Assembly (NCBI GenBank): GCA_028707125.1
Contig: JAQTUX010000002.1
Coordinates: 144,355 to 208,354, forward strand
Source of the DNA: Candidatus Omnitrophota bacterium
Lineage (GTDB): Bacteria > Omnitrophota > Gorgyraeia > Gygaellales > JAQTUX01
Direction of reading: 5' to 3'
DNA length: 64,000 nucleotides
Each line of letters starts with the position of its first letter. The first letter of the stretch is position 1. A model generated the notes under the pieces. That model saw nothing but the letters and a program-made list of their open reading frames with translations. It searched no databases and was not told the origin of the DNA. This document shows, piece after piece, positions 29,107 through 48,067 of the stretch. A program made the translations under genes and the position numbers.

Positions 29107-30843
29107 TCAGAGAAAGCTTGCCAGTCTTTCATCGGTGATCTCCGAAAAATAATCACTAATATAACCCCTGTTGTAATCCTCTGTTTCTTTGGTTTCCGCG
29201 GCGCTTTTTGCCGGATCCCGATTATAATATATATTCAAATAATCTTTGAATCCCTCCACTGAGCTGACCACTATTTTATTCCGCTTATAACCGAATAAAC
29301 GGTCTGTATTATACATCTGCCCGTTAAGCGCGAAATATCCCACAGTGATATTGTGTTTCAGCGCCTCAATGCACAGGGTATTATCGTCATAAAGCAATAT
29401 GTCTATCTCTTTGAATATGTCCTGCCAGGGGATGCCCCTGGCATCAATAAAGTTTTCAGGCAGCATATGCCCGAAATCTATATTGTGGACAAAATCCGGA
29501 TGAAATTTAAGATAGACGGTATATTCACTGCTGTCAAAGATCCGCATAAGATGAAATAAAATCGTCTCATAATTTTTAAAATCGAAAGAGAAGGCGTAGG
29601 CGACCTTTTTAGCCGAGCCCATCCTGCCGGTAAACGGCTGCCCGCGGAAAAGATGCTGGTAACGCAGGCCGCAGCCCTCCTCCACGATACCGGGGGCAAA
29701 ATGCCCCCTGGCCTCCATCGTGTCTTTCAATATCCTGCCCCCCGTAAATATCTTGTCCGGCATAAAGGCGGCCCCCTTTTCATGCCTGCCGGGAAAATAC
29801 TGCAGGAGCTTGTAAGATACGCTTGAATGTTGAAAAGCGGTCAATTTTACAGGCGAAGACATCTCATTCCTGGCTGATATAAATGCCTTTTCCCAGGGAT
29901 GATTCTCAAAAGGATAGAATATCCTGCCTATTGAAAACCTGCTTAAGATATCTTTGGCAAAAAAGTAATCCAGATACGCCTTGATCCAGCCCAGGCCGTA
30001 AAAATCTTCCCTTAAGGACAGCCGCGCCAGAGCGGATATATCATACCCCTTGAACAGCATCCCGCCTGCGATCTTCGGCCTTTTAGAAATTCCGTACACC
30101 AAAGATAAAAATAAATCTTTAAATGTCAAATACCTGTAATTCACGGTATTCCTGTAAGGGGTACGGGTTCTGGATATGTCAAAATAATGCCGTAAAATGA
30201 CATTTATCTTGTTGTGGTGCATGATCTGATTGAATACCATAATACGCTTGCCTTTTGCGGCCAGCCATTTCAGGAGCGGGTCAAAATATTCATCCCTGTG
30301 CCCGCCCTCCTGATAAGAGCGGTAATCGCAAAATGAATAAAACGCGCAGTCAAATGCCGCCTCATGCGGTATCTTAAAGAAAAACCTTGAACTGACGATG
30401 GCAAAGGTATTGACTATAATGACCTTGACGGCGTCGCGGATAAACTTCATGCCCGCGGCCAGGCCGAATAACTTCAAACGGTATGGATTATAGCCGACCT
30501 CGATGCCCCTGCCCGCGGCATAGGCGATCAAGGCCCTGATAACTTTATAGTCAAGATTATTAAAGACGATGTTCTCCCCTGTTTTATCAATGAGTTCAAG
30601 GCAATAGATGAACCTGCAGACCTTGTCATAAAACAAAGTCATCCCCTCTATCCTGGTAAGAGTAGGCGATACCAGATATTCTATGGCGCTGCTATTCCTG
30701 CCAACGACCTCAGAGAATAAATCATTGTATTCCCATATATCGTCCTCTTTTATGCAGGGGATATCGGAAACCCTGATCTTGCCGATATCCACGGCCCTAT
30801 AGCGCTTATCCTGACTGTCTTTTAATATCTTCAGCGTAAACAT
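29107..30843 (-). CDS. Hypothetical soluble protein, possibly a GT-B ulosonic-acid (sialyl/Kdo-type) transferase-like enzyme.
   Basis: 578 aa. I recognise no family. It contains a KFHPDF HP motif of the kind found in bacterial sialyl- and Kdo-transferases. The call is speculative. Confidence 0.3.
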   Translation of the reverse strand: MFTLKILKDSQDKRYRAVDIGKIRVSDIPCIKEDDIWEYNDLFSEVVGRNSSAIEYLVSPTLTRIEGMTLFYDKVCRFIYCLELIDKTGENIVFNNLDYKVIRALIAYAAGRGIEVGYNPYRLKLFGLAAGMKFIRDAVKVIIVNTFAIVSSRFFFKIPHEAAFDCAFYSFCDYRSYQEGGHRDEYFDPLLKWLAAKGKRIMVFNQIMHHNKINVILRHYFDISRTRTPYRNTVNYRYLTFKDLFLSLVYGISKRPKIAGGMLFKGYDISALARLSLREDFYGLGWIKAYLDYFFAKDILSRFSIGRIFYPFENHPWEKAFISARNEMSSPVKLTAFQHSSVSYKLLQYFPGRHEKGAAFMPDKIFTGGRILKDTMEARGHFAPGIVEEGCGLRYQHLFRGQPFTGRMGSAKKVAYAFSFDFKNYETILFHLMRIFDSSEYTVYLKFHPDFVHNIDFGHMLPENFIDARGIPWQDIFKEIDILLYDDNTLCIEALKHNITVGYFALNGQMYNTDRLFGYKRNKIVVSSVEGFKDYLNIYYNRDPAKSAAETKETEDYNRGYISDYFSEITDERLASFL

Positions 30844-31775
30844 TTTTCTTTCTGTTTGGCGATACCCACCGGTTGATACCTGGGCTCATAGATCCCAAAA
30901 GGCAGACCGCTATCGGCTGTGCCGAGATAATACCTGGAGACCCTCTTTTTTATCTCGTTGGAATCCTTTAATTTTTTAAACAGGTTGTCATAATCGACAA
31001 AATTTGCCGGACAGCCGTCTAAGGCGAATATCTTCCTTATGGAATCCTCGCAAAAACACCAGCCCCGCGCAGGATGAAAATACCAGTCCTTGTCCTTTGC
31101 CGCGCTGACGGTTAAAAACATATACGCCGACTTCTTCAAGATACGGTTAAATTCCCCCGCTGCCTTGCTGATATCCGCGTGGTCGGCATGTTCAAGCGCG
31201 GAAACGGAGATAATACAATCCAGCTCCCCATCCGCAAACTCCTTCAGATTCGTAAAGTCCCCCAGGACACGCACTATCTTTCCGTAGGCGTTGCTGCCGA
31301 ACCTGGACTTGAATGCCTCCTTCCACATATTCAGGTTAATATAGGTGGGCGCGAATTCATAAACGAGATATTTTATAATACCCTTAACACCCCAATCCGG
31401 CTTCTTTTTCTTATGGCTTATAAATTTTCTATAACGGTGTTCAAAATTATCCAGACCGTGCCTGCGCTGTTCCACATTGAAGATCATGCCTGCCGCGGGC
31501 GGCAGGTCCCTTTCCGCGAAATCCAGACTAATGACGTTGTATCCGCGCGCCGCCAGAATAAACTGCAGCACGCCGTTACCTGCCCCGGCATCCATTATCC
31601 ATGAACCCCTGGGCAGTTTGATCTTTTCTAAATGATCCAATATCCATATAAAATCCAGCCAATAATGCCAGCCCATCGGATAATGGGTCACGCCTGCCCA
31701 GTATTCGACCAGCTTAAGTTTATCCGGGTGATCTTTCATAAGGTCAGCGCTAAGTATCTCTATCTTATCCTGCAT
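30831..31775 (-). CDS. Class I SAM-dependent methyltransferase.
   Basis: Motif I is WIMDAGAGNGVLQFILAARGYNVISLDF. 314 aa. Confidence 0.7.
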   Translation of the reverse strand: MQDKIEILSADLMKDHPDKLKLVEYWAGVTHYPMGWHYWLDFIWILDHLEKIKLPRGSWIMDAGAGNGVLQFILAARGYNVISLDFAERDLPPAAGMIFNVEQRRHGLDNFEHRYRKFISHKKKKPDWGVKGIIKYLVYEFAPTYINLNMWKEAFKSRFGSNAYGKIVRVLGDFTNLKEFADGELDCIISVSALEHADHADISKAAGEFNRILKKSAYMFLTVSAAKDKDWYFHPARGWCFCEDSIRKIFALDGCPANFVDYDNLFKKLKDSNEIKKRVSRYYLGTADSGLPFGIYEPRYQPVGIAKQKEKCLR

Positions 31776-31781
31776 GATCTT

Positions 31782-33308
31782 TTACTCCGTAGGTACGGGC
31801 GCCTTCAAACGCGTAAGCCGCTGCATAAATAGGTAAGATGACGCCAGAAGCCGCGTAAATACCCTGCGCCTCCCTATAAAGACCACTAACCTGTTTGTAA
31901 AGAACCTGTAGAACGCATTATGAAAGCGCCTTAACGAATGCGACCTCTTCATAAAGTAGATGATCATGGAGCAGACCGTGTAATAATCAGCGCGGTGTAT
32001 CTCTTCCAACTGGTTTAATCCGGCTCCAGCCAGATAGCGAAGATATGTGTCTTCCTTTATCAGTCCTGCCTTCCTGGCCATTTCATAGAGGGCAGTGCCT
32101 GGGAAATGGACCAGAGGGAAAAACCTGATATTGAAAAACGGGTCTATCCTGTGAACAAAATCCAGTGTTTCGCGCGTGCTGCTTGCCGGCTCCATTTCAT
32201 TACAGACGATCAAATGCACAAAACAGGACCTTACCTTATCCTTATAGGACCTGATGACCTCCAGCACCTCATAGACCTTTTCGATCTTCATATGCCGCTG
32301 ATACATATCCCTGTTTGTTCGGTCGCAAGCGGTCTGGACCCCTATCAGGCATTCCACGGCTCCGGCATCCACCAATAATTTGAACTTATCCTCATTAAAC
32401 GCCGAAGGGGTAAACTCTATTTTAAAAGGCAGGTTGATCCTTGACTTGTATAAGCCGGCAAATTGCTTGATGAAATCCAGCGGTTGGGCAAAAAGGTCCT
32501 CATCGCTTAAAAAGATATAATTAATGAAGGGATGCCTTTTCAATACCGCCTCGATCTCCCTGATAACATTCTCCGCGCTTTTTCTCCTGGAACTTATCCC
32601 GCCGTAGAGCTGCTGCAGGCCGTTATTACAGCAGTAGGCACAGCGATAAGGGCATCCTCGCGACGTTGCCACGTAATAATCAATGCGGCCTCCCCAGGTA
32701 TTGCCGCTGGTCATATATTTCTTCATCAATTCCGGCGTTATCCGCTTTAACGCCCCTTCTTCCACTATCAGATGCGACTGAAAATCATTATCAGGATAGG
32801 GCAGGCTGTCCAGGTCTTTCAGCAATGGACGCAGGGGGTTCTCCTTGATGGCCTCATTTCCGTTACCATCGTGTGTGCGGACCCAAAGGTTCTTGATATC
32901 GGAGTAATCCTCTCCTCTGGAAACACGCTCCATTAACTCCAGCAGGGCCTCCTCTGATTCGCCGCGGGAAATGATATCCGCTTCTTTGATACAGCCCTCC
33001 GGGAATAAGCTGGGGTGCACGCCGCCCCAGACAATGGGTTTACCCAATTTCCTGATCTTCTTTGTGGCCTTTGCCGCCTCTAAATGATAGTTTGAGGTCA
33101 CCGACAGGCCGATCAGATCGGAATCACTGCAGGCATCCATTACCTGTTCATACACGCTGTCGGGGAAGATATCGAGAAAACGGTCATAAGGAGAAAGCAT
33201 ATAAATGATCTGCGCCTGGTGGCCCCTGGCCTTCAAGTAGGCGCTGAGGCTGGTAATGCCGACCGTATTGAGCTGATAGGTATAAAAGATCAAACTGACT
33301 TTAGCCAT
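31782..33308 (-). CDS. Cobalamin-binding (class B) radical SAM enzyme, paralogue 6 of 7.
   Basis: 508 aa. The N-terminal B12-binding domain includes KVSLIFYTY...IVWGGVHPS. Radical SAM motif: TSRGCPYRCAYCC. Confidence 0.85.
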   Translation of the reverse strand: MAKVSLIFYTYQLNTVGITSLSAYLKARGHQAQIIYMLSPYDRFLDIFPDSVYEQVMDACSDSDLIGLSVTSNYHLEAAKATKKIRKLGKPIVWGGVHPSLFPEGCIKEADIISRGESEEALLELMERVSRGEDYSDIKNLWVRTHDGNGNEAIKENPLRPLLKDLDSLPYPDNDFQSHLIVEEGALKRITPELMKKYMTSGNTWGGRIDYYVATSRGCPYRCAYCCNNGLQQLYGGISSRRKSAENVIREIEAVLKRHPFINYIFLSDEDLFAQPLDFIKQFAGLYKSRINLPFKIEFTPSAFNEDKFKLLVDAGAVECLIGVQTACDRTNRDMYQRHMKIEKVYEVLEVIRSYKDKVRSCFVHLIVCNEMEPASSTRETLDFVHRIDPFFNIRFFPLVHFPGTALYEMARKAGLIKEDTYLRYLAGAGLNQLEEIHRADYYTVCSMIIYFMKRSHSLRRFHNAFYRFFTNRLVVFIGRRRVFTRLLASSYLFMQRLTRLKAPVPTE

Positions 33309-34002
33309 TTTTTACCCTCGCTTGCCGTTTAAGCACCCCCGACTTGAAGATCGATTCCGCCATCCGGAAATCCTCTTCTTCGTCAATATCTATCGCCTCG
33401 ATCCTGTTCATTTTATACAGATACGGTTTCAAGCCGATCCTGCGGCCCTTATTTTCAAAACTGCTTCTGGAAAAAATGTAAAAGTTTGAATTCTCTTCAT
33501 ATACGGGAGAAAGATCCTGGGTGCGTATAAGCCTGCGGGGATCATGATTAAGAGGATGGAAATCATCATCATAGAACCTCGCCCTGTGCTCTGTCACGGA
33601 AAACAATGAATCATATCCGTCTTTTAAAGAGGCAAAGTATGTTTTCACAGCATCCTCTATTGTGGCCGGCATTAAAAGCGGGTTTGTGCTATGTGTCTGC
33701 AGGAAGTGCTCTCCCTCCAACAGCGAAATATCGTGGCCGATGATCTTATTCATGGAAACATGGTCGCCGCTAAGGCGGACAGGCCTGTCTATGAGCAGGA
33801 CTGAAGGATAGCCGCTTTTAATGAGCTGTTTGATCTTCCCGCTGTCTGTATCCACTACTATCGCCTCAACGCAGTTTACCTTCAACAGCGCGTCAAATAT
33901 CCTGTGGAACAGCGGCCTTCCGCAGAAATCGCGTATATTCTTATTCGGCACCCTCTCGCTGTGTCCCCTCATCGGGACCAACACCTTAATCTTCACAGCC
34001 AT
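33301..34002 (-). CDS. CMP-ulosonic-acid cytidylyltransferase, of the acylneuraminate cytidylyltransferase (NeuA/KdsB/CTP_transf_3) family. This is the second such gene in the locus.
   Basis: VLVPMRGHSERVPNKNIRDFCGRPL is the typical N-terminal motif of this family. 233 aa. Confidence 0.7.
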   Translation of the reverse strand: MAVKIKVLVPMRGHSERVPNKNIRDFCGRPLFHRIFDALLKVNCVEAIVVDTDSGKIKQLIKSGYPSVLLIDRPVRLSGDHVSMNKIIGHDISLLEGEHFLQTHSTNPLLMPATIEDAVKTYFASLKDGYDSLFSVTEHRARFYDDDFHPLNHDPRRLIRTQDLSPVYEENSNFYIFSRSSFENKGRRIGLKPYLYKMNRIEAIDIDEEEDFRMAESIFKSGVLKRQARVKNG

Positions 34003-35059
34003 GGAATCCCCTTTTCAATAATTTAAGGAGCCCGCTCTTTATTCTGGAGGCGGACCTTATCAGCCTGCCTGCCCTGCTTTTGTTCATGCTCAGGCGTTTT
34101 TCTTCCAACTGTTTCAGCGTACTTATGATAGTAAAATAATTATTTGAAAGATCGAGGCCGCAGACATGAGACGGCTGGCACCGGAACAGGCTGCGCACGT
34201 ATTCGTCACCCGCGATGAATTTAAAACCCAACGGCTCTATGACGGAACGCAGGGAAAGAAGGTTAAAATTATAATTATGGACAAAGGCCGAATAAACTAT
34301 ATAGTTATAATCGTAGTCCTTTAAGTAACAGACGCCGGGGACCTCGACATATAAATACCCGCCCTCTTTGACAAGGGGCTTGATCTTGTTAAACTCGCTT
34401 TTTATATCGCCGAAATGCTCAACCACATGGCTCAAGATCACGATATCCGCCTTTTTCCCGGCTAATGACTCTGCCAGCCCCTTATAAACATCAATGCCTC
34501 TGCTACGGGCCATCTGCGAGGCATCTTCCGAAGGTTCGCAACCGCATACATCTACAGCGATCCCGTCTTTTTCCAGCAGGTTCCTGACCTTGTCCAATAA
34601 AGCTCCCCTGCCGCAGCCGATCTCTATGATCTCAAGGCGCCTGCCCGCCTCTTTACGCGTAACGTATCTGTCCAGATATTCGTATATCTTTTCGGCAGAA
34701 TCGGGTTTGACCGTCATCAGGTCCCTTATTGACTCGCCCAATATCAGGTCATAGTAAACCTTCTCATAGAATTCCGGCAGGTCATTGAAAGAAAGCCGGG
34801 GTGATACCTGGATCAGGCCGCATTGCCTGCAGATCTTTGTCCCGAATGGCAGTACGAACCTGTCCTGCACGCTCAAGACCTCAAGGTCATCAGAGCCGCA
34901 GAGGCATTTCTTAACGTGCTCCAGGCGGTATTTACCGTCAAAGATATACTTCAACAATGTAAAATAGGCCCTGCGCCTTTTCGGGTCCAGCTTAAAGCCG
35001 TAATAAAAAGGAAATTCAACCGCTGCCTGTCCGGACGTTTTGTCTTTCATTGCCATCAT
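33986..35059 (-). CDS. Class I SAM-dependent methyltransferase with an N-terminal C4 zinc-ribbon.
   Basis: CLCGSDDL...CRQCGL, then motif I RRLEIIEIGCGRGALLD. I trimmed the start to the ATG at 35059, which forms an ATGA overlap with the TGA stop of the upstream gene. The ORF track extends it to 35119. Confidence 0.7.
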   Translation of the reverse strand: MMAMKDKTSGQAAVEFPFYYGFKLDPKRRRAYFTLLKYIFDGKYRLEHVKKCLCGSDDLEVLSVQDRFVLPFGTKICRQCGLIQVSPRLSFNDLPEFYEKVYYDLILGESIRDLMTVKPDSAEKIYEYLDRYVTRKEAGRRLEIIEIGCGRGALLDKVRNLLEKDGIAVDVCGCEPSEDASQMARSRGIDVYKGLAESLAGKKADIVILSHVVEHFGDIKSEFNKIKPLVKEGGYLYVEVPGVCYLKDYDYNYIVYSAFVHNYNFNLLSLRSVIEPLGFKFIAGDEYVRSLFRCQPSHVCGLDLSNNYFTIISTLKQLEEKRLSMNKSRAGRLIRSASRIKSGLLKLLKRGFHGCED

Positions 35060-36237
35060 ACCTGTTTCAGGCGATTTGCCAGTATCTGCCAAAGGGGCAG
35101 ATTTTCCGACCAATCGCACTTAAGAAATTGCTGCCGGTAATGCCGATAATGCGGCTGGCTGACCTTCAATTCGTTTTCCCAGTCGATCTTCGATTCCTTA
35201 TCTATATACACCGCCCTTTTACCGTGCAACTGGGCCAACACTTCAATAAACTTGCTGTCCTGCATGCCGTCGTACGCGAGAAAGACAACCGGCTTTAGAA
35301 AAAGATTTGCCAGGCTGACAGCGGTGCTGGATTGGGTCAACACCAATTTCGCTTCCCTTATCAGCTCTGCGGTCTTGCCCTTGATACACTTGCGCCCTTT
35401 ATAATAATCCGGCAGTTCATCGTAACGGGAACGCGGATGGGCCGCGATAACAACCTCGAGTTTCAAGTCCCTCTCTACCGCGCCAAAAAAATCGTCGAGA
35501 AGCCCGTAATACCTGTCTATATCATAATTGCTCTTCACGCCTTCATAAAAATAATTCCAGTCCAGCGCCGGACAGATGTCCAGAAATACCGCGATATCGC
35601 GCTCCCGCGATGTCTTTTTTGACTCCTCAAGATAAACGTCGTAATCAAGGTTGTGTCCCCAGACCAATTCCGTATTTTTACCCAGCGGCAGCCGATGCTT
35701 GTTGACCGAGCCTTCGCCGCCGGCCATAAAAAACCGCGCCGGTTTTACGCCGAACAATCCAAGCGGCAGCAGGGGCAGTATCAATCTCTTATAAAGCCCT
35801 GAAGGAGTATGCCGCGACAATGACTTTAATTTTCTCATAATGACGGAAGCGCGCCTATGCCCGTTGAGCCGGTCAATGTCCCTCACGTCCGGCATGGCGT
35901 TGAGCAGCGCCACGATATATTCCGCCTTTGCCCTGCTTATTACCCTGTATAGATCGAGCAGCTTGAATTGAAAGGTTATGGCGTCAAAGATCACGCTATC
36001 CTGATCCAGATCCAATAATTGGCCATATAATGTCTTCGCGTCGTAAAAGAACTTCGTCCCCTTAAAGTCAACGTAATCCGAGGCCTTGTATTGCTTAAAG
36101 AGCTCCGGATGCAAGAAAGGTGTAATATCCCAATACTCCACCTTAAAACCGTTATCTTCCAGCGTCTTTATGCCGTAACGCCGGAAATTCCATTCGTTCA
36201 GGTTCTGCCTGGCCAATATTATTATATTTTTTATCAT
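35056..36237 (-). CDS. Hypothetical protein, possibly a GT-B ulosonic-acid (sialyl/Kdo-type) transferase-like enzyme.
   Basis: 393 aa. It has an HP motif (AAHPRSRYDELPDYY) followed about 33 aa later by TQSSTA. This spacing resembles the HP and S motifs of bacterial sialyltransferase and KpsS-like enzymes. It has no strong family match otherwise. Confidence 0.35.
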   Translation of the reverse strand: MIKNIIILARQNLNEWNFRRYGIKTLEDNGFKVEYWDITPFLHPELFKQYKASDYVDFKGTKFFYDAKTLYGQLLDLDQDSVIFDAITFQFKLLDLYRVISRAKAEYIVALLNAMPDVRDIDRLNGHRRASVIMRKLKSLSRHTPSGLYKRLILPLLPLGLFGVKPARFFMAGGEGSVNKHRLPLGKNTELVWGHNLDYDVYLEESKKTSRERDIAVFLDICPALDWNYFYEGVKSNYDIDRYYGLLDDFFGAVERDLKLEVVIAAHPRSRYDELPDYYKGRKCIKGKTAELIREAKLVLTQSSTAVSLANLFLKPVVFLAYDGMQDSKFIEVLAQLHGKRAVYIDKESKIDWENELKVSQPHYRHYRQQFLKCDWSENLPLWQILANRLKQV

Positions 36238-36998
36238 TTAATCTTTTTTATCTTCTTGATCAGTTCTCTGCAGGTATGTCCCAGGAATAACGTATCAAGG
36301 CTGAATGCCAGGAACCTGTATCCTTCATCGATCTTCTCTGTAAGCAGCTCCGCCTGCGGAGGTATCAGGTGGAATCCGGCTGTCTTTTTCATATCCCTGG
36401 CGACCTTCATAATGCGCGCCAGGGCGGCCTTAACCCGCGGATGCTCAAACTCTCCAGGCCTGCCGATAGAACCTGAAAGGTCATAGGGTCCGACGATAAA
36501 CCCGTCCACGCCTTCAACCTTCAGTATTTCCTCCAGATTATCCACCGCCTTGATGTGCTCTATCTGCGCGATCACCACGCTGCCCTTATTAACCCAATTC
36601 TTATACTTCTCAAATCCCATCCCATACCCCTGAGCCCTGGCAAGGCCCACCCCTCTTCTTCCTTCCGGAGGGTATCTGACGGCGCTTACCGCCGCAACCG
36701 CGTCCTCTTTGCTGTTTACCATAGGGACGATCACGCCGTGAGAACCGGCATCCATAACTCGCTTGATAAGGACCGGGTTGTTTTCGCCCACCCTTACCAG
36801 AGGCAGGCAGCCGGACAATTCGATTATCTGGATAAGCGCCTGGGCCTGATCAAGTGTTATCGCGCTGTGCTCCATATCTACTGTCAACCAGTCAAAGCCC
36901 GCCCTGGCCATGATCTCCGCGATTGAAGCATGGCCCACGGTGATCCAGGAACCCACGGTAAGAAGCCCTTTTCTTAATCTCTCTTTTAGGTCTATCAT
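36234..36998 (-). CDS. HpcH/HpaI-family class II (metal-dependent) pyruvate aldolase.
   Basis: 254 aa with a TIM-barrel aldolase layout: LRVGENNPVLIKRVMDAGSHGVIVPMV...PEGRRGVG...VIAQIE. Confidence 0.75.
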   Translation of the reverse strand: MIDLKERLRKGLLTVGSWITVGHASIAEIMARAGFDWLTVDMEHSAITLDQAQALIQIIELSGCLPLVRVGENNPVLIKRVMDAGSHGVIVPMVNSKEDAVAAVSAVRYPPEGRRGVGLARAQGYGMGFEKYKNWVNKGSVVIAQIEHIKAVDNLEEILKVEGVDGFIVGPYDLSGSIGRPGEFEHPRVKAALARIMKVARDMKKTAGFHLIPPQAELLTEKIDEGYRFLAFSLDTLFLGHTCRELIKKIKKIK

Positions 36999-40347: not shown

Positions 40348-41559
40348 TCAATCGTCTACGCCGCCGCCCCAGACCGTATGCCTTAGCCCCCACTCATTGT
40401 TGACCTTGGTCCATACATGAGGCGATAACGACCTGTAAAAATCGACTACTTCGTGAAATTCTTCTTCGGTTATACCGAGATATCTCAAAAACCATTGAAA
40501 ATACTTCTTCGGGAAAGCCCCGTCGTAACGCTTGACAAGGGCAACCCCTTCCTCGCGGGTAATATGGCCGTCCCTGATCTCATGCGCGGCATCCGAGGTG
40601 GCCCTGGCGATACCGAACTTCATGTAAGCAAGATAAAAATGGAAACCGTCCTGCTTATCATCCAGGCTGGCATACTTGGAATAGGTCCCTTCTGAATGTT
40701 CGGGGTTAGGCTTAAATCCGGTATTCTCTACACAATAATAATAATTTTCCTGCGGGACCCATTTCTTGTAAAAGGAAAACCAATGCATCTGCGCCCCTAT
40801 CTTGCTCAACTCTTCCAGTTCCGGCGGCCTATACAAGCGGAATGAATCAGCGTTTATCTCCTCCTTCTTGAAGACCCCCGCCTCTAAGCCATGCCGGATC
40901 AGATCGTCTATGCCGGAACCCTTATAATAAAGTTCTTGCCAGTCCTCAGGCCTCTCATAGGCATTCTTGATATTTTTGCTGGACCCGCCGTATTCGATCT
41001 CTCCGCTTTCGCCATAAAACATCAAAGGGATCTTAAACCTTACCGCCATCTGAAACGCATATGCCTTTTGCCCATAGGCAAAGGGCTCCCACGCGTCACC
41101 CAGAAGCTCGAAGGACAATCTGGATAATTTTCTATGTAAAACACCATCGGGAAAGCATAATAAATTATCAAAACCGGAATCTTTAAAACTCAAATAATTC
41201 TGCCAACCGATATCCGTGTACTCAAAAGGGGCCCAGGTCACGGTCAAAGGATGCATGCCGTATTTATATTTCAGTTGGTGCGCGACGTAACCGGAATCCT
41301 TGCCTCCGCTGCCGGGGACAATACAATCATAGCTCCCGTCCTTTGAACGGTACCTGTTCAGCAGATCAACGAGCATCTTCTCTCTTTCTTTCCAATCTAT
41401 CGTGTTATGTTTCAAGTACGCATAACGACAGGCGCTGCAAACGCCATTCTCGTCAAAAGTGATCCTCGGCCTCTGATTCGAAACAACGCAGCTTTTGCAG
41501 AATCTGGTCTCTTTTGGAAGTCTGCCCAGCTGTTTATCTAACGTTTTTCTGAATAACAT
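40348..41559 (-). CDS. N-acetyl-sugar amidotransferase (PP-loop ATPase, WbuX/PseA-like) that makes an acetimidoyl (acetamidino) group.
   Basis: N-terminal zinc-ribbon (CKSC...CSAC) and PP-loop SGGKDS. The next two genes downstream are a HisH/HisF-like pair, as in the wbuXYZ arrangement. Confidence 0.7.
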   Translation of the reverse strand: MLFRKTLDKQLGRLPKETRFCKSCVVSNQRPRITFDENGVCSACRYAYLKHNTIDWKEREKMLVDLLNRYRSKDGSYDCIVPGSGGKDSGYVAHQLKYKYGMHPLTVTWAPFEYTDIGWQNYLSFKDSGFDNLLCFPDGVLHRKLSRLSFELLGDAWEPFAYGQKAYAFQMAVRFKIPLMFYGESGEIEYGGSSKNIKNAYERPEDWQELYYKGSGIDDLIRHGLEAGVFKKEEINADSFRLYRPPELEELSKIGAQMHWFSFYKKWVPQENYYYCVENTGFKPNPEHSEGTYSKYASLDDKQDGFHFYLAYMKFGIARATSDAAHEIRDGHITREEGVALVKRYDGAFPKKYFQWFLRYLGITEEEFHEVVDFYRSLSPHVWTKVNNEWGLRHTVWGGGVDD

Positions 41560-41589
41560 GCCCTGCCTCCAATGTGCCGGATAAAAAAA

Positions 41590-42234
41590 CTACATCTTAA
41601 GGAAATTCTCAAATATTTTTAAACCGCCTCTGGCGCTCTTTTCCGGATGGAACTGGCATCCCCATATATTATCTTTGCAAAGTACGCTGCAGAATCTATC
41701 CTTGCCATATTCCGACTCCGCTATTATGTTGTTATCTTCATTCGGCGAACAGATAAAAGAATGCACGAAATAGAAATGGCTCCCGTCGGCAACATCCCTT
41801 AAAATAGACCTGCCCGGATTCAAAGCGCCCTCCTTAAAATAAATTTCTCTCCAGCCAACGTGAGGGATCTTAAACGAATTATCCTTTTCCGGTTTCTCCA
41901 GGATCCGGACTCTTCCCTTTATTAAATTCAGGCCGTTGCAAAGACCGAATTCATCGCTTTCGCTCATAAGCAGCTGCATACCTAAACAGATACCCAATAA
42001 TGGCCTGCCGCTTCCAGAAAATTCACAGATCGCATCGCTTAAGGACCTGTCTTTTAACTCGCGCATCCCCTCACGAAAGGCGCCCACTCCCGGCAATATC
42101 AATCTTTGCGCGGAGCGGACTTTCACAGGGTCGCCGGTGATCTCGGTTTCGCCTCCGATATAGGCCATCGCCCTTTCAATACTGAAGAGATTGCCCATTC
42201 CATAATCAACTATGGTGGCCTTATTATTGTTCAT
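41590..42234 (-). CDS. hisH: Imidazole-glycerol-phosphate-synthase HisH-like glutamine amidotransferase subunit (WbuY-like).
   Basis: Class I glutaminase triad region LLGICLGMQLL...HVGW...CQFHPEKS. 214 aa. Confidence 0.8.
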   Translation of the reverse strand: MNNNKATIVDYGMGNLFSIERAMAYIGGETEITGDPVKVRSAQRLILPGVGAFREGMRELKDRSLSDAICEFSGSGRPLLGICLGMQLLMSESDEFGLCNGLNLIKGRVRILEKPEKDNSFKIPHVGWREIYFKEGALNPGRSILRDVADGSHFYFVHSFICSPNEDNNIIAESEYGKDRFCSVLCKDNIWGCQFHPEKSARGGLKIFENFLKM

Positions 42235-43118
42235 TATGGATTAACCGCTCCCTGCAGCATGCACCTGCAACTGACCCCTGCTTCGCTCAGTCTCTTTTTC
42301 ACTTCTGCTATAGAATCGGGCTTGATCCTGTTAGGCATAAAATTCAAACTGCCTCTGCTCCTCTTTATAAACTCTATATTGCCTTCTTCTTTAAAATCAA
42401 CGGGGTCGATATCCCGCTCCATATATTGATAGTGGAAAATAGACGCCGCGCTTACAGCATCGGCATGCCCATGCCTTATGGCCTCCAGGATATGCTCAAA
42501 TTTACCGCATCCTCCGCAGGCAATGACCGGTATGGGCGACTCTTTCGCTATCGGGCTTACCAGACCTAAATCATACCCTAAGCCGGTGCCTTCATTATCA
42601 AGGGAAGTCAAAAGGATCTCTCCCGCGCCCAAGGCGACTACTTCCTTTGCCCAATTAAACACCTCTTTGCCGCTCGCCTCTCTTCCGTTGTCGGTCATGG
42701 CTATATATGCATTATTGATCAGTTTTGCCTGAATAGATACCACGATACACTGAGAACCGAACGTCTCGGCCGCTTCCCGGATAAAATCCGGGTTATGGAT
42801 GGCCGCCGTATTGATAGCGACTTTATCGGCTCCGGAGCGCAATATCCTCTTGATATCCTCAATCGACCTTATGCCGCCGCCTACTGTCAGAGGAATAAAG
42901 ATATTTTTTGCGGTCTTCTCTACGATCTCTAAAAGATTATTCCTTCCGTAAAGGCTGGCAACCGCGTCTATGTAGATCAACTCATCCGCTCCGTCCAGAT
43001 AATACTTACAGGCGAAATCCCACGGCTTTCCCAAAACGCGCAGGCCTTCCAGATGAATGCCCTTGACTAAGTTAGGGCCCTTGATATCCAGTCTCGGTAT
43101 AATCCTCACATTAGCCAT
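42234..43118 (-). CDS. hisF: HisF-like cyclase subunit (WbuZ-like) with a C-terminal extension.
   Basis: (beta/alpha)8 HisF motifs: RIIPRLDIKGPNLVKG...TVGGGIRS...GADKV...GAGEILLTS. Its stop shares one nucleotide with the hisH-like start. Confidence 0.8.
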   Translation of the reverse strand: MANVRIIPRLDIKGPNLVKGIHLEGLRVLGKPWDFACKYYLDGADELIYIDAVASLYGRNNLLEIVEKTAKNIFIPLTVGGGIRSIEDIKRILRSGADKVAINTAAIHNPDFIREAAETFGSQCIVVSIQAKLINNAYIAMTDNGREASGKEVFNWAKEVVALGAGEILLTSLDNEGTGLGYDLGLVSPIAKESPIPVIACGGCGKFEHILEAIRHGHADAVSAASIFHYQYMERDIDPVDFKEEGNIEFIKRSRGSLNFMPNRIKPDSIAEVKKRLSEAGVSCRCMLQGAVNP

Positions 43119-43119
43119 A

Positions 43120-43860
43120 TCAGACCGCGGTCCACCCTCCGTCTACGACAAGGTTGTGCCCCGTTACATAGCCCGACGCGTCGGATGCCAGGTATATTGC
43201 CGCTCCCGCTATATCAACCGCCTTTGCCATCCTTCCCAGAGGGGTCTTGTCTGAATATCTTTTCACAAAGGCATCCGCCTGCCTGTCGCGCACACCGCCC
43301 GGAGAAATACAATTAACCCTGACCCCATGCCCGCCGTAGTAGGAAGCGAGGTATCTCGTGAAAGCGATTATTCCGCCCTTAATAGCGGAATAGGCTCCGG
43401 GGCAGGTCATTTTGGTATTCTTATAAATAGAGAAATCCGGCCCGACCATGCCATAAATAGAAGCAAGGTTAATAATGGACCCGCCTCCCTTCTTTTTCAT
43501 ATACTCGGCGGCATTCCGGCAGCAGATAAAATACCCGTTAAGGTGCGTATCGATATTCTTTCTCCAGGACGATACCGGCACATCCTCAAACTTCAAGGCC
43601 CAATCGCCGGTCCTGGGATAAGCGCTGTTGACCCATATATCCATACGGCCATATTTCTTATCCACAAACTTGATCAAAGAAGAGACCGACCGCTCATTGG
43701 CGATATCCACATGCCGGCCGGCGTTTTTATTGATATCGGCGGCCACAACAGAGGCGCCAAATGCCGACAGGCCGCGCGCTATTTCCTTTCCAATCAACCC
43801 CGCGCCCCCCGCTACAACCGCTACCTTGCCTTTCAGGCAGAAAAGATCATCGTATTTCAT
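43120..43860 (-). CDS. Short-chain dehydrogenase/reductase (classical SDR), possibly a PtmA-like accessory enzyme of the nonulosonic acid module.
   Basis: KVAVVAGGAGLIGKEIA glycine-rich motif and YSAIK (YxxxK). Confidence 0.75.
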   Translation of the reverse strand: MKYDDLFCLKGKVAVVAGGAGLIGKEIARGLSAFGASVVAADINKNAGRHVDIANERSVSSLIKFVDKKYGRMDIWVNSAYPRTGDWALKFEDVPVSSWRKNIDTHLNGYFICCRNAAEYMKKKGGGSIINLASIYGMVGPDFSIYKNTKMTCPGAYSAIKGGIIAFTRYLASYYGGHGVRVNCISPGGVRDRQADAFVKRYSDKTPLGRMAKAVDIAGAAIYLASDASGYVTGHNLVVDGGWTAV

Positions 43861-44581
43861 TTTTCCACAGTCCTTCCTTGATCAGGAACTCAATAAATTT
43901 AAAATCCATCTCGCTGTCTATGTCGTATCGTGACAACGCGCCCATAATATAGATCTCCGTCCTGCCGGCAAAAGGCATGGAATGCCTGGTATCAAGCAGA
44001 AAATCCCTGGAGTAAAAATATATCGAGGCATTCATATCAAATACCTCAGGAGCCGCCTGCCTGCCGGAAACCTTCCTGGACAGGGCCTTACAACGCCTGA
44101 CCGATCCGTCCCCTTTCCTTTCAACCATATTAAAATACGGATTCCTGTGCGCCCTGACCACGCTGAAAAGTATCGCGGGCTTACTTCTAAGAAATAACTT
44201 CAGGCATTCATCCAGGTCTTTGATCCTCCTGATCGGAGACGTAACATCCAGATCCACGACAATATCGTATCGTTCCTTGAATATCTTTTCGCTCTGGACA
44301 AGCGCGTGCCTTATGCTCAAAAGCTTGGGGGCGCTATCCGCGGCCAACTTATCCGGCCGCATAAAAGGCACCTGCGCCCCAAAATCCTTCGCGATATCAG
44401 ATATCTTTTCTGAGTCGGTAGACACGACAACCCGCCCAGCCCCGCCCCATCTCAATGCCTGCTCTATCGTATAGGCGATCAGCGGTTTACCCATTAAAGG
44501 GCGGATATTCTTATCCTTGAGCCCTTTGGACCCGCCTCGCGCGCAAATCGTGCATAATATATTGGGCCTGCCTGCCGCCAT
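43847..44581 (-). CDS. legF: CMP-nonulosonic acid synthetase (acylneuraminate cytidylyltransferase family, NeuA/LegF-like).
   Basis: ILCTICARGGSKGLKDKNIRPLMGKPLIAYTI. I moved the start to the ATG at 44581 (MAAGRPN...), which sits just downstream of the upstream gene's stop at 44584 and follows a GGAG/AGGGG RBS. The ORF track extends it to 44632. Confidence 0.75.
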   Translation of the reverse strand: MAAGRPNILCTICARGGSKGLKDKNIRPLMGKPLIAYTIEQALRWGGAGRVVVSTDSEKISDIAKDFGAQVPFMRPDKLAADSAPKLLSIRHALVQSEKIFKERYDIVVDLDVTSPIRRIKDLDECLKLFLRSKPAILFSVVRAHRNPYFNMVERKGDGSVRRCKALSRKVSGRQAAPEVFDMNASIYFYSRDFLLDTRHSMPFAGRTEIYIMGALSRYDIDSEMDFKFIEFLIKEGLWKNEIR

Positions 44582-44583
44582 AT

Positions 44584-45507
44584 CTACACCCCTAAAACTC
44601 CTAACACATCCAACGCCTGATCCAGAGAGCACAGCCTGGGCTTCAACCGGCGGTCAAGGCCCAGGAATACCCTGAGCATACTGATGTAGGATCCATCAAT
44701 CGCATCATTCCTCAGGACTGTCTTTCCCGATATCTCCAGCCGGCCGGTGATAAGGTCATAATAAAGATTCCTGGAGTTATCGCAGATTATCTTTAAATAC
44801 CTCTCAGCCGGCTTTCTTATATAATCCAGAGTTATATCCACAATAAATTCACGGTAATCTAAGATCAATTTAAAGGTATCCGGCGCGTGGATATCCAGGC
44901 CGCTGATCTTAGCCCTGTATAAAAACCTTTTCTTGAAGGCGCTGCCAAATAGCCATAACGCGTAGTCGATCTCGTGGGAAAGGTCCAGATCAACGCCTCC
45001 CCCCAGGCGCCTGTGCGCGCTGTAAGAATCCCCTGTTTCCCTTCCCGGCCGCCATTCCCTCAAGTCCTGCCCGGCCGCTATTTCAACGATCTTGATGCTA
45101 CGCCTTTGCCCTGCTATAAAATCGGCGATCATGTCAAATGCCCTGAGAAACCTCAGATTGTAAGCGACAAATACCCCGACGCCTGAGCCGGCTGCCAGCC
45201 TTTTTATCTCTCTGCCTTTTAAGGCCGAGGATTCAACCGGCTTCTCAATGAGCACGCCCTTCAGCCGCTTCAAATTACGCAGGCAACTTTTAAAATCAGC
45301 CAAATGCCTGGACGTGACGGAAGAAATAACGCAATATTTGATATCTCTGGATGTGAGGCCCTTGATGCTGTCAACAAACCTGGCGCCTGATCCATCGGGA
45401 TGCCTCGTCAGCACGTAAGGATTGATCCCCAGCGACATTAGATTCCCGACATGACGCTTCCCTGCAGAGCCGTAACCGGCCACTAAAACTTCAACGCGCC
45501 TATTCAC
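44584..45507 (-). CDS. Gfo/Idh/MocA-family NAD(P)-dependent oxidoreductase (PtmF/WbpB-like accessory sugar oxidoreductase).
   Basis: N-terminal Rossmann VLVAGYGSAGKRHV...EKP. 307 aa. Confidence 0.7.
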   Translation of the reverse strand: MNRRVEVLVAGYGSAGKRHVGNLMSLGINPYVLTRHPDGSGARFVDSIKGLTSRDIKYCVISSVTSRHLADFKSCLRNLKRLKGVLIEKPVESSALKGREIKRLAAGSGVGVFVAYNLRFLRAFDMIADFIAGQRRSIKIVEIAAGQDLREWRPGRETGDSYSAHRRLGGGVDLDLSHEIDYALWLFGSAFKKRFLYRAKISGLDIHAPDTFKLILDYREFIVDITLDYIRKPAERYLKIICDNSRNLYYDLITGRLEISGKTVLRNDAIDGSYISMLRVFLGLDRRLKPRLCSLDQALDVLGVLGV

Positions 45508-46495
45508 AAATATCCTCTTTCAACAATTCCCTTATTTCCCCGGCCGCCATGACCTTGCCTTCATTGGATCTATATACGATACGGCTGCCTTTATCGCTGT
45601 GTTTGCCGTGATTTAGCGTGGAAAGAATGTACATATCATCCAGTTCGTTCACTATCGCCGCCTCATCGTCATTCATCAACTCCTCATGCATCTTCTCCCC
45701 GTCTCTCCTGCCGATGAAATCAATCTTGACCTCTTCCTTACCGCGCCCGTATTTAGGGGCGAATTCCTCAATGACCGCTTTAGCCAGGTCCTGAATAAGC
45801 AGGGCGGGCATTTTCAGTATGAATGTCTCTCCCCCTTTTGAGATGTGCGCTGCCTTAAGCACCAGCTCGGTGGCCTTATCAATGCTCATCACGAATCTGG
45901 TCATTGACCCGTCGGTAACAGTGACCGGGCCTCCTTTCTTTACCTGCTCCTTGAACAAAGGCAGGACAGACCCCCGGGAATTCAAGACGTTGCCGAATCT
46001 CACGCAGGAAAAAACCGTCCGCCTTTCCCCCTTGTATAAATTAGCCGATACTGTTAACCTTTCAGCAAGCAATTTAGACGCGCCCAGGACGTTGATCGGG
46101 TTTACCGCCTTATCCGTGCTGATAGTGATGAATCTATCGATCTTTTCATCCATAGCGGCTTCTATCAGATTCTTGGTCCCTAAGACATTTGTCTGAACCG
46201 CCTCAAAGGGGTTAAGTTCGCATAACGGCACGTGCTTGAGCGCTGCAGAGTGGAATACTATATCTATGCCTTCAACAGCCCTTCTCAGCCGCTCCTTATC
46301 CCTGATGTCCCCTATCAGAAGCCGTATCTTATCGCGTGGCAGCTTACGCCCAAGGTGGAACAGCTCTGTCTCATCCGTATCCATGATCCTTACGGTATTT
46401 GGGTTGTACTCCAGCAGCTTCTTGACAAGCGCGCTGCCTATGGAGCCGGCTCCGCCGGTCACAAGGATCATCTTATTTTCATAAAAATTCTTCAT
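45500..46495 (-). CDS. legB: NDP-N-acetylhexosamine 4,6-dehydratase (PseB/LegB/CapD short-form family).
   Basis: MILVTGGAGSIGSALV...DKAVNPINVLGASKLLAERL. 331 aa. It begins the nonulosonic acid module. Confidence 0.75.
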   Translation of the reverse strand: MKNFYENKMILVTGGAGSIGSALVKKLLEYNPNTVRIMDTDETELFHLGRKLPRDKIRLLIGDIRDKERLRRAVEGIDIVFHSAALKHVPLCELNPFEAVQTNVLGTKNLIEAAMDEKIDRFITISTDKAVNPINVLGASKLLAERLTVSANLYKGERRTVFSCVRFGNVLNSRGSVLPLFKEQVKKGGPVTVTDGSMTRFVMSIDKATELVLKAAHISKGGETFILKMPALLIQDLAKAVIEEFAPKYGRGKEEVKIDFIGRRDGEKMHEELMNDDEAAIVNELDDMYILSTLNHGKHSDKGSRIVYRSNEGKVMAAGEIRELLKEDICE

Positions 46496-47622: not shown

Positions 47623-47626
47623 ATCC

Positions 47627-48067
47627 CTACCTTGAAAATGTTTCTATTTCTTTCCTGGTCAATTTCCTCGCTACCTTTGCCGGAACCCCGTAGGCCAGCA
47701 CATTGGCCGGTATATCTTTATTTACAAAACTGAAGGCGCCGATGACCGAATTCTCACCGATCTTTACCGCCGGCATTATCACGCTGTGGCTGCCGATCCT
47801 GCAATTCCTGCTCAAGGTAACCGGCCCCTGTTTATTGTCAATAGTAGAAACGGAGTATACGGAGCAATGAGACCCTATCTGGACATAATCCTCTATGGCC
47901 ACGCCCTTCTTGGCGTTAATATACGTATAGGCCCCTATATCGGTCTTGTAACCCAACTTAAAATTGCCCTTATGCTGAACCAACCAGTTGAATTTCGTAG
48001 GCCTGCCTTCTTCTATTTTCGGGTATTTCCAATCCTTGAATCTTGCGCCCATGTCGCTCCTCATCAA
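47627..48067 (-). CDS. Hexapeptide-repeat (left-handed beta-helix) acyl/acetyltransferase.
   Basis: 146 aa with isoleucine-patch repeats (VQIGSHCSVYSV...CRIGSHSVIMPAVKIGENSVIGAFSFV). Confidence 0.7.
   Translation of the reverse strand: MMRSDMGARFKDWKYPKIEEGRPTKFNWLVQHKGNFKLGYKTDIGAYTYINAKKGVAIEDYVQIGSHCSVYSVSTIDNKQGPVTLSRNCRIGSHSVIMPAVKIGENSVIGAFSFVNKDIPANVLAYGVPAKVARKLTRKEIETFSR

Follow-up and report, generated by a model that had tools for sequence, protein, structure and literature searches.

The window analysed here is a stretch of 64,000 nucleotides from a Candidatus Omnitrophota bacterium (GenBank assembly GCA_028707125.1, contig JAQTUX010000002.1, positions 144,355 to 208,354). It encodes two proteins, of 578 and 393 amino acids (aa), which probably are cytoplasmic glycosyltransferases (GTs) of the GT-B fold that use a CMP-activated 2-keto-3-deoxy sugar acid, a nonulosonic acid (NulO) or a related ulosonic acid, as donor, and which would form two unclassified, distantly related families. 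We put the probability of this reading at about 0.62. What the analysis shows is the predicted fold, how the motifs are conserved and placed, distant homology and the genes nearby; catalytic activity, donors, acceptors and stereochemistry are inferred.

The original prediction had proposed the two open reading frames (ORFs) as the transferases missing for two cytidylyltransferase genes of the same locus. Translation confirmed both ORFs and placed them on the minus strand, a point not stated before. Family scans likewise bore out both cytidylyltransferases as CTP_transf_3 proteins; the second had been begun at an inner start (44581), and 43847-44632 is used here.

35056..36237, minus strand: 393-aa soluble GT-B protein, candidate CMP-NulO glycosyltransferase (ATG start; ORF and translation, AlphaFold2 (AF2) model, genomic association)
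29107..30843, minus strand: 578-aa protein with an N-terminal extension of ~160 aa and a GT-B core, candidate transferase for the product of the adjacent cytidylyltransferase (ATG start)
33301..34002, minus strand: cytidylyltransferase type 1, 233 aa, CTP_transf_3, conserved partner of the 578-aa family (PF02348, 6e-24)
43847..44632, minus strand: cytidylyltransferase type 2, within a NeuB-dependent legionaminic-type pathway (PseF model, 120 bits)

Nonulosonic acids, such as the sialic, legionaminic and pseudaminic acids, occur widely on the surfaces of bacteria and archaea, and their biosynthetic genes are easily recognised. To our knowledge, the enzymes that attach them are known from only a handful of organisms. 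New families of CMP-ulosonate transferases were still being defined in 2024-2026 (GT118, GT140; PMC12887879). GT-B transferases of this kind with HP motifs are already known, and judging by their sequences the two families would be new within that kind. The family of ~390 residues has no Pfam or NCBIfam model and stands beside a CMP-synthetase gene in organisms from Omnitrophota through cyanobacteria, Colwellia and Firmicutes to methanogens. If confirmed, it would be a source of candidates for the 'missing' transferases of many genomes and offer enzymes for the chemoenzymatic synthesis of legionaminic-acid glycans. The 578-aa family would provide a functional handle on a large uncharacterised TIGR04326-like superfamily (>4600 representative clusters). 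From this family there is a hint, too, that a new CMP-activated sugar acid may be made by way of an aldolase; if true, the acid would be of a kind new to microbial surfaces.

Conserved motifs and predicted fold

The 393-aa protein matched no Pfam and no NCBIfam model and contains no hydrophobic segment. It is 100% identical to the metagenome-assembled genome entry PHR44_07205, and every one of the 168 homologues found is annotated 'hypothetical'. Pfam and NCBIfam scans of 56 members of its family returned isolated noise-level matches, the best being TIGR04331 (4 members, E 0.003). The 578-aa protein also had no Pfam match; a single NCBIfam model, TIGR04326, was matched below threshold (33.8 bits against a cutoff of 250), and one borderline hydrophobic helix spans residues 138-156. 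The initial description of two soluble proteins of no recognised family thus holds in full for the 393-aa protein, and for the 578-aa protein apart from the borderline helix and the sub-threshold TIGR04326 match.

Both proteins had been picked out by an HP dipeptide. This dipeptide occurs in 26 of the 59 window ORFs, twice in each of the two target proteins, with 0.3-0.44 expected per protein. In itself it is therefore uninformative and was rejected as evidence; the quoted dipeptides stand above chance because they are conserved in homologues. KFHPDF is found at residues 446-451 of the 578-aa protein (H448-P449), and in the 393-aa protein AAHPRSRYD occupies residues 265-273 (H267-P268) and TQSSTA residues 301-306, beginning 33 residues after P268, in agreement with the motifs and the gap of about 33 residues first reported.

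Conservation in the 393-aa family was assessed on 56 homologues at 26-46% identity. Only nine columns were invariant, H267 and P268 among them, while A266, R269, S270 and S304 were at least 90% conserved; the consensus around S304 is HxSTA, and the other HP of the protein (H43-P44) was not conserved. In the close family of the 578-aa protein (19 homologues), K446, H448 and P449 were invariant. Across 134-155 superfamily representatives at 17-64% identity, H448 was conserved in 99% and P449 in 100%, and the other HP (H315-P316) was kept only in the close family. The prediction was to fall if the HP dipeptides varied among homologues; they are invariant in all 56 and all 19.

AF2 gave confident GT-B models for both proteins, with a mean pLDDT of 92.6 and pTM of 0.90 for the 393-aa protein and 91.0 and 0.89 for the 578-aa protein. 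When compared with the PDB by Foldseek, each model produced >200 matches at E<=1e-3 to GT-B enzymes across both Rossmann-like domains, including OleD, YojK, GtfA, UDP-GlcNAc 2-epimerases and MurG for the 393-aa model, and additionally BshA, MshA, NeuC and the CDP-alcohol transferases TagF, TarL and Cps3D for the 578-aa model. The lack of a GT-B fold, named as a further ground for abandoning the prediction, was thus not found.

In both models the second strand of the C-terminal Rossmann domain (261-266 in the 393-aa protein, 442-446 in the 578-aa protein) has the HP motif at its C-terminal end (H267 and H448, respectively), and a Ser/Thr residue starts the helix two strands further on (LVLT-QSSTA, helix 307-312; ILLY-DDNT, helix 490-496). 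The codons of the motifs are as follows; those of the two HP motifs were verified by translation.

35434..35439, minus strand: H267-P268, HP motif, ending strand 261-266 (model, C-terminal Rossmann domain); invariant in 56 homologues
35323..35331, minus strand: S303-S304-T305 (TQSSTA), N-terminus of helix 307-312; candidate CMP-phosphate-binding Ser/Thr pair
35578..35646, minus strand: D198-Y-D200 (35638-35646) through D220 (35578-35580), near the domain junction; invariant in 56 sequences
29497..29508, minus strand: K446-F-H448-P449, K-x-H-P motif at the end of strand 442-446; K446, H448 and P449 invariant in 19 homologues; aligns to KpsC 'VKVHP'
29365..29391, minus strand: Y485-D-D-N-T489-L-C-I-E493, strand-to-helix turn 37-45 residues after HP
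29887..29907, minus strand: E313-N-H-P-W-E318-K319, the most conserved N-terminal Rossmann motif, candidate catalytic-base loop
29827-29832, minus strand: Q338-H339, ~97-98% conserved
29662-29664, minus strand: R394, 99% conserved

The spacing from HP to the Ser/Thr helix is 36-41 residues in both window proteins versus 44-48 in the sialyltransferases PmST1 and MhPST. In MhPST, K289 binds the cytosine, the HP-motif residue H291 binds the phosphate, and S339/T340 assist (PMC5517516); the equivalent residues of PmST1 are H311 and S355/S356 (PMC4202792). The 578-aa protein has the same K-x-H-P spacing as MhPST (K289-x-H291-P) and KpsC ('VKVHP'), so that K446 matches the Lys two residues before His. 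S303/S304/T305 of the 393-aa protein would be analogous to MhPST S339/T340 and PmST1 S355/S356. By alignment and model, the arrangement of HP motif and Ser/Thr helix in both proteins appears to be that of CMP-dependent GT-B enzymes, and the early suggestion of a likeness to the HP and S motifs of GT38, GT52, GT80 and GT107 fared well.

Further conserved residues may face the cleft. In the 578-aa superfamily (155 sequences), E313 was conserved in 100%, N314 in 98%, E318 in 99%, Q338 in 97%, H339 in 98% and R394 in 99%; E313-N-x-x-W-E318, Q338-H339 and R394 lie at the N-terminal-domain side of the cleft, which fits an inverting mechanism with a carboxylate base. Y485 and E493 were 98% and 93% conserved and position 489 is T or S, making T/S489 and E493 candidates for phosphate and ribose/sugar binding. 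The segment Y485-E493 aligns to 'YTVSSQMGFEGL' of KpsC and to 'LTQSSTAVSL' of the 393-aa family. In the 393-aa protein, D198, D200 and D220 are candidates for the catalytic base; D220 closes strand 215-219, the first of the C-terminal domain in the model, and might for that reason serve as a nucleophile instead. Right after this invariant Asp, a second motif, 'LDE-x-x-PFHPD', is present in most of the family; the window protein has lost it (ICPALDWNY, residues 220-228, about 35554-35580).

In the mechanism that we propose, the C-terminal Rossmann domain would bind CMP, and the invariant HP histidine (H267 or H448) would contact and stabilise the departing phosphate with the help of the Ser/Thr at the N-terminus of the next helix (S303/S304/T305, or T489). 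K446 of the 578-aa protein may contact the cytosine. The acceptor hydroxyl would be activated by cleft-facing acids (D198/D200/D220, or E313/E318). The sugar acid would thereby join a growing surface glycan, presumably then flipped by the Wzx-like protein encoded at 37016-38569.

Remote homologues and known CMP-dependent enzymes

An exhaustive profile search with the 578-aa family retrieved 4613 representative clusters, 1136 of them at E<=1e-30 and mostly of ~600 aa. TIGR04326 (O_ant_LIC13510) was matched by 60 of the 61 superfamily representatives sampled (best E 6.9e-38), and TIGR04396, 'surface carbohydrate biosynthesis protein', by 33 of the 61. The length class of ~600 aa and the setting in O-antigen or surface-glycan loci are common to these models and the window protein; all TIGR04326 scores were far below the cutoff (33.8-130 bits versus 250, with 130 for the best relatives). 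The 578-aa protein therefore appears to be a divergent TIGR04326 relative that lies outside the family as defined. As both models are uncharacterised, membership would not assign a function, and a literature search returned nothing relevant on TIGR04326, TIGR04331, LIC12162 or LIC13510, nor on HpcH in connection with nonulosonic acids.

A functional link came from NF046086 (BFO_1060 family glycosyltransferase), which matched 31 of the 61 representatives over the C-terminal domain at 18-38 bits (best E 1e-10, cutoff 200) and had no match in the window proteins, suggesting a remote homology. BFO_1060 is the strain 92A2 orthologue of Tannerella forsythia Tanf_01245/TFUB4_00887 (PMC5420450). When Tanf_01245 or TFUB4_00887 is deleted, the S-layer O-glycan loses its terminal pseudaminic- or legionaminic-acid derivative; HP motifs were noted in the two proteins (PMC5420450). 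The T. forsythia enzymes resemble the window proteins in being soluble, of the GT-B fold and HP-bearing, and their genes lie next to a CMP-NulO pathway that makes acetamidino- and glyceroyl-tailored sugars (PMC5420450). They differ in being TagB-like and of 442-445 aa, compared with 578 aa including a 160-aa extension, or 393 aa, in the window proteins, which have no conserved DXD motif; they are also genetically validated, whereas the function of the window proteins is predicted. A natural fusion was seen in superfamily member P0277 (749 aa), where a GT-B domain of the 578-aa superfamily is followed by a C-terminal PseH-like GNAT acetyltransferase, tying the superfamily to pseudaminic-acid metabolism.

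A second link was obtained by searching all PDB chain sequences with a 134-sequence superfamily profile (A4). The four best hits were KpsC beta-Kdo transferases of GT107 (E 0.003-0.014), aligned over 78 residues, with 'kfHP' on 'VKVHP' and 'YtdsTvalEAL' on 'YTVSSQMGFEGL'. The match is weak but appears specific, as it falls on the motif in question: KpsC and the 578-aa superfamily have in common K-x-H-P and the following S/T-x-x-x-E-x-L helix. The GT107 Pfam model Capsule_synth (PF05159) matched one of the 61 superfamily members (E 0.07) and none of the 393-aa family.

The two families were also compared with each other. Hhalign placed the 393-aa family on the broad superfamily with a probability of 71-74% (E ~3e-5), AAHPRS falling on (K)xHP and one S/T-helix on the other. 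A comparison of the two close families (A1 against A2), with a probability of 0.6%, misaligned KFHPD on the non-invariant 'PFHPD' and was set aside in favour of the broader-profile result. The latter aligns HP on HP. We treat the two proteins as probable distant relatives that belong to a common assemblage of HP-bearing GT-B proteins, in which the 393-aa family is a compact form without the 160-residue N-terminal extension.

Among characterised enzymes, GT38 (MhPST, NeuS), GT52 (NST/Lst) and GT80 (PmST1) share with the window proteins the GT-B fold, the HP motif and a downstream Ser/Thr. They are inverting enzymes whose HP histidine contacts the phosphate of CMP; a Ser/Thr pair follows 44-48 residues further on, and the acidic base is in the N-terminal domain. 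The conserved-residue layout of both window proteins fits this pattern. Tested for membership, both window proteins have the GT-B fold in their AF2 models and, as far as alignments and models tell, the conserved HP with a Ser/Thr at a helix N-terminus; profiles PF07388, PF07922 and PF11477 and searches of PDB sequences to E<=10 detected no similarity to GT38, GT52 or GT80 for either family.

Besides HP, the retaining CMP-ulosonate transferases GT99 (WbbB), GT107, GT118 (KpsS1, Pse) and GT140 (KrkA) have as their defining feature a QXXXD nucleophile motif, in which the Asp is the nucleophile of a double displacement and the Gln binds the carboxylate (PMC12887879). A conserved QXXXD was absent from the alignments of both window families. 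The equivalent segment of the 393-aa family is A216-V-F-L-D220, with D220 invariant and the Gln missing, and that of the 578-aa superfamily is 'ILVALS'/'AYAFSFD', without a conserved Asp. The N-terminal Rossmann domains of GT99 and GT107 are also described as reduced and displaced, whereas those of the window models are of full size.

The model of Maf/MptE-like flagellin NulO transferases, PF01973, matched neither protein nor any scanned window ORF, and no member of the 393-aa family or of the superfamily matched the TagF/TagB model Glyphos_transf (PF04464) at E<=0.1. For each of GT38/52/80, GT107 with the allied families, TIGR04326, NF046086, TagF and Maf, either the profile score falls short or a defining motif is lacking, so that neither protein belongs to any defined family. 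The 393-aa family in particular, with no model, a wide phylogenetic spread and close ties to NulO genes, makes a good candidate new glycosyltransferase family.

Gene neighbourhood and possible donor pathways

The 59 substantial ORFs of the window are all encoded by the minus strand, with overlaps at many junctions, and its GC skew is negative throughout. The window forms one co-directional array of >60 kb that serves surface-glycan synthesis nearly entirely, and it contains exactly one member of each family. As first suspected, it encodes no other obvious sialyl- or Kdo-transferase: family scans found no match to known sialyl-, Kdo- or Maf-type transferase families among its ORFs. The two proteins as the best candidates for the missing transferases are supported by fold, HP conservation, the KpsC and NF046086 links and their association with cytidylyltransferases.

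This association was examined for the 393-aa family with one genome per species and a 15-sequence alignment, six-frame ORFs being searched with the window proteins. The 54 resulting loci came from Omnitrophota, Nitrospirae, Syntrophales, Desulfovibrionaceae, Alpha-, Gamma- and Zetaproteobacteria (including Colwellia hornerae), the cyanobacterium Raphidiopsis brookii, Firmicutes (Schaedlerella, Veillonellaceae), Bacteroidetes, Spirochaetia and Patescibacteria, as well as the archaea Methanoregula, Woesearchaeota and Thermoplasmatales. Of the 54 loci, 44 had a homologue of NeuB and/or CTP_transf_3 no more than 10 kb away. Where at least 5 kb of flank was available on both sides, either was present in 32 of 35 loci, both in 24 and NeuB in 29. 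A cytidylyltransferase gene was found near the 393-family gene in 36 loci, mostly of type 2, and directly abutted it in 10; neighbours were almost always on the same strand. In L003 and L005 the adjacent cytidylyltransferase is the last gene of a complete legionaminic-type pathway. The tie of this family to NeuB and the cytidylyltransferase is a strong but uncalibrated association, given here as raw counts.

Several types of transferase seem to coexist in NulO loci, since 393-family loci often hold other candidates. In L003 an MptE/Maf-like domain is fused to an HMGL-like domain, and eight loci hold TIGR04326-like superfamily members. Other candidates were noted in L003 (21124-21173 and neighbours), L004 (20415-21218), L005 (1-517 and 20557-21173), L020, L022, L047, L056 and L059.

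The 578-aa family showed a different setting. An orthologue of the type-1 cytidylyltransferase (177-335 bits) lay a few genes upstream in every well-flanked close homologue examined, 11 loci in all (L001, L006, L061, L062, L063, L064, L069, L071, L072, L075 and the window). A methyltransferase gene usually overlaps the start of the 578-family gene, with a homologous one in L006, L061, L063 and L072. The loci usually hold an HpcH aldolase, a 2-hydroxyacid dehydrogenase, an SDR and an HAD phosphatase, the cyclase being variable; the dehydrogenase/SDR/HAD/cyclase set adjoins 578-family genes in L001, L006, L062, L063, L064, L069 and L072, and aldolase orthologues occur in L001, L006, L062, L063, L066, L069, L071, L072, L074, L076 and L077. 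NeuB was absent within 10 kb in all five fully flanked loci of this type (L071, L072, L076, L077 and L080). The type-1 enzyme scored 98.7 bits with the PseF model (cutoff 205.7) against 39 bits with KdsB models; being full-length PseF/NeuA-like and not KdsB-like, it argues for a CMP-linked sugar acid as its product.

In the direction of transcription, the window presents, after the NeuB-dependent pathway, genes for a radical SAM protein, a GT2, the Wzx-like flippase, the HpcH aldolase, the 393-aa protein, a methyltransferase, the type-1 cytidylyltransferase, a B12-radical-SAM protein, a second methyltransferase, the 578-aa protein, the 2-hydroxyacid dehydrogenase, the extended SDR, the HAD phosphatase and the cyclase-like hydrolase. 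Along this stretch, most junctions overlap by 4-17 bases.

37016-38569: Wzx-like protein
36234..36998, minus strand: HpcH/HpaI class II pyruvate aldolase (PF03328, 2e-36; 4-base overlap with the start of the 393-aa gene)
33986-35119, minus strand, probable start 35059: methyltransferase, tailoring (family scans)
31782-33308, minus strand: B12-binding radical SAM protein, tailoring (family scans)
30831-31775, minus strand: methyltransferase, tailoring (13-base overlap with the start of the 578-aa gene)
28186-29094, minus strand: 2-hydroxyacid dehydrogenase, companion of the 578-aa gene (family match)
27300-28184, minus strand: extended SDR, companion of the 578-aa gene (family match)
26659-27303, minus strand: HAD phosphatase, companion of the 578-aa gene (family match)
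25995-26675, minus strand: cyclase/arylformamidase-like protein, companion of the 578-aa gene (family match)

The NeuB-dependent pathway of the window, which includes the type-2 cytidylyltransferase, comprises the following genes.

40348..50222, minus strand: NeuB-dependent nonulosonic-acid pathway with acetamidino tailoring (family matches)
49206-50222, minus strand: NeuB
48064-49209, minus strand: NeuC-like
47627-48067, minus strand: acetyltransferase
46492-47622, minus strand: PseC/LegC-like
45500-46495, minus strand: PseB-like
44584-45507, minus strand: GFO oxidoreductase
43120-43860, minus strand: SDR
40348-43118, minus strand: HisF/HisH/WbuX-like acetamidino genes

From this synteny, the 393-aa family most likely uses the NeuB-derived, legionaminic-type CMP-sugar and the 578-aa family the product of the type-1 enzyme (33301-34002). 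The 393-aa gene of the window is itself located in the type-1 module, which makes its donor here less certain, and its nearest relatives (43-46% identity; L001, L062, L065 and L074) are likewise found in a type-1 module, between aldolase and cytidylyltransferase. The initial idea of two transferases for two synthetases therefore stands in outline, whereas their one-to-one pairing in this window is only partly resolved.

A further-reaching reading of both families seems possible but doubtful to us. According to it, the 578-aa family is the dedicated transferase of an undescribed NeuB-independent CMP-sugar-acid pathway, and the 393-aa family is a new legionaminic-type glycosyltransferase family found throughout bacteria and in archaea. 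In such a pathway the HpcH-type pyruvate aldolase would build the 2-keto-3-deoxy acid in place of the PEP-dependent synthase NeuB or KdsA. The acid would be tailored by the 2-hydroxyacid dehydrogenase, extended SDR, HAD phosphatase, cyclase-like hydrolase, and SAM and B12-radical-SAM methyltransferases, and the distinct type-1 CTP_transf_3 enzyme would then activate it with CMP. The constant partnership of the type-1 enzyme with a class II pyruvate aldolase and its independence of NeuB suggest a pathway undescribed in the literature searched, and the module of aldolase, dehydrogenase, SDR, HAD phosphatase, cyclase and short CTP_transf_3 protein may make an undescribed CMP-activated 2-keto-3-deoxy acid.

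Competing readings and other features of the locus

Several observations weigh against both proteins being CMP-sugar-acid transferases. Both families are known from sequence and predicted structure. The KpsC match amounts to 17-19 bits over 78 residues, and searches of PDB sequences with single proteins or close-family profiles gave nothing meaningful. The link of the 393-aa family to the superfamily is only moderate (71-74%) and went undetected with the narrow A2 profile. The best Foldseek matches in the PDB were GT1 enzymes, UDP-GlcNAc 2-epimerases, MurG, BshA and TagF, with TM-scores of only 0.3-0.55, and no GT38, GT52, GT80, GT107 or GT118 structure was among the top 50 for either model. 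A conserved D/E-D/E-G motif was not found in either family; E387-E388-G389, near the domain linker in the close family of the 578-aa protein, is not conserved across the superfamily. Bacteria and archaea must have different acceptor glycans, yet the N-terminal domain of the 393-aa family shows unusual conservation between them; an enzyme acting on the nucleotide sugar itself would fit this equally well. Finally, Bacillus subtilis SpsB, a TagB-like protein with HP motifs, is dispensable for Leg transfer (PMC7439481). An HP-bearing GT-B protein encoded beside NulO genes is thus not always the transferase, and our confidence is accordingly held near 0.6.

There is a first alternative in which the 578-aa protein, and possibly the 393-aa protein too, is a TagF/TagB-like phosphotransferase that takes a CDP-linked donor from the type-1 enzyme, releases CMP and leaves a phosphodiester product. 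We consider it unlikely. The unit transferred would be a phospho-alcohol or phospho-hydroxy-acid, for example one derived from glycerate through the neighbouring 2-hydroxyacid dehydrogenase and HAD phosphatase, and the conserved phosphoglycerate-dehydrogenase-like and HAD phosphatase companions do fit a small hydroxy-acid metabolite. NeuB is usually missing near 578-family genes. TagF, TarL and TagB are GT-B-like, have CMP as leaving group and use catalytic histidines; TagF, TarL and the TagF-like capsule polymerase Cps3D were among the Foldseek matches of the 578-aa model, and the T. forsythia NulO transferases linked to the superfamily were first recognised as TagB-like (PMC5420450). However, the Glyphos_transf match is lacking at E<=0.1, the TM-scores to TagF were 0.31-0.42, and the best sequence match among solved structures is a CMP-Kdo transferase and not TagF. 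The partner nucleotidyltransferase is also of the CMP-sugar-acid type, a full-length PseF-like CTP_transf_3 protein, not TagD- or IspD-like.

The strong conservation of the 393-family N-terminal domain across phyla and domains of life speaks for a second alternative, quite improbable in our view, in which one or both proteins are GT-B-fold nucleotide-sugar-processing enzymes that hydrolyse or epimerise their substrate, like PseG, NeuC or LegG, or act on the CMP-sugar. UDP-GlcNAc 2-epimerases and NeuC were among the best structural matches, and one superfamily member weakly matches the PseG model; the 2-epimerase and PseG catalytic signatures were nevertheless undetected by their models. That step is not missing from the pathway, since a NeuC/LegG-type enzyme is already encoded in the window as well as in 23 related loci. 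Invariant HP with an S/T-helix is a hallmark of transferases with CMP as leaving group (PMC5517516, PMC12887879), and although the 393-family gene often directly follows the last gene of the pathway, the slot after the CMP-synthetase is the one expected for the transferase that consumes its product.

That both are ordinary GT-B glycosyltransferases using UDP-, GDP- or dTDP-sugars, with the nearby cytidylyltransferases a by-product of a dense glycan cluster, is very improbable. In its favour, enzymes for dTDP-, GDP- and UDP-sugars are encoded elsewhere in the locus, NDP-sugar enzymes of GT1 and GT4 head the Foldseek matches and a few superfamily members weakly match GT4/GT1 Pfam models. Against it, the association is kept over 54 and >15 independent loci of many phyla, in which the genes may directly adjoin those for cytidylyltransferases and be translationally coupled to them; NDP-sugar GT-B families also lack a conserved HP at that position and have Pfam models of their own, which these proteins do not match.

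Besides the pathways described above, the window holds genes for dTDP-, GDP-heptose-like and UDP-sugars, four GT2 genes, one GT4 gene and one Wzx gene. Its load of radical SAM and methyltransferase genes is unusually heavy and probably serves sugar C-methylation. There are seven paralogous B12-binding radical SAM genes (4338-5810, 9152-10729, 16085-17473, 17445-18980, 24578-26047, 31782-33308 and 53901-55439). One more radical SAM gene, of a non-B12 type, lies at 39416-40315, and SAM methyltransferase genes are numerous; B12-radical-SAM genes are also present in L001, L004 and L062.

Three further ORFs of ~570-584 aa without a Pfam or NCBIfam match (50219-51931, 56396-58105 and 12052-13806, minus strand) were considered as paralogous transferases and rejected, being polytopic membrane proteins with 6-12 hydrophobic segments and no BLAST or HMM similarity. 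They are possibly polymerases, ligases or oligosaccharyltransferases of the glycan system; two GT-C/STT3-like membrane proteins are encoded near them (10737-12095 and 13816-15111).

At the edge of the glycan locus lie genes for pyruvate-dehydrogenase-E1-like alpha and beta subunits (2268-4338, minus strand), and a split transketolase-like pair is similarly placed in L062 (698-2408). One possibility for the E1-like pair is a thiamine-dependent transfer of a two-carbon unit onto a sugar, which would give a branched-chain sugar.

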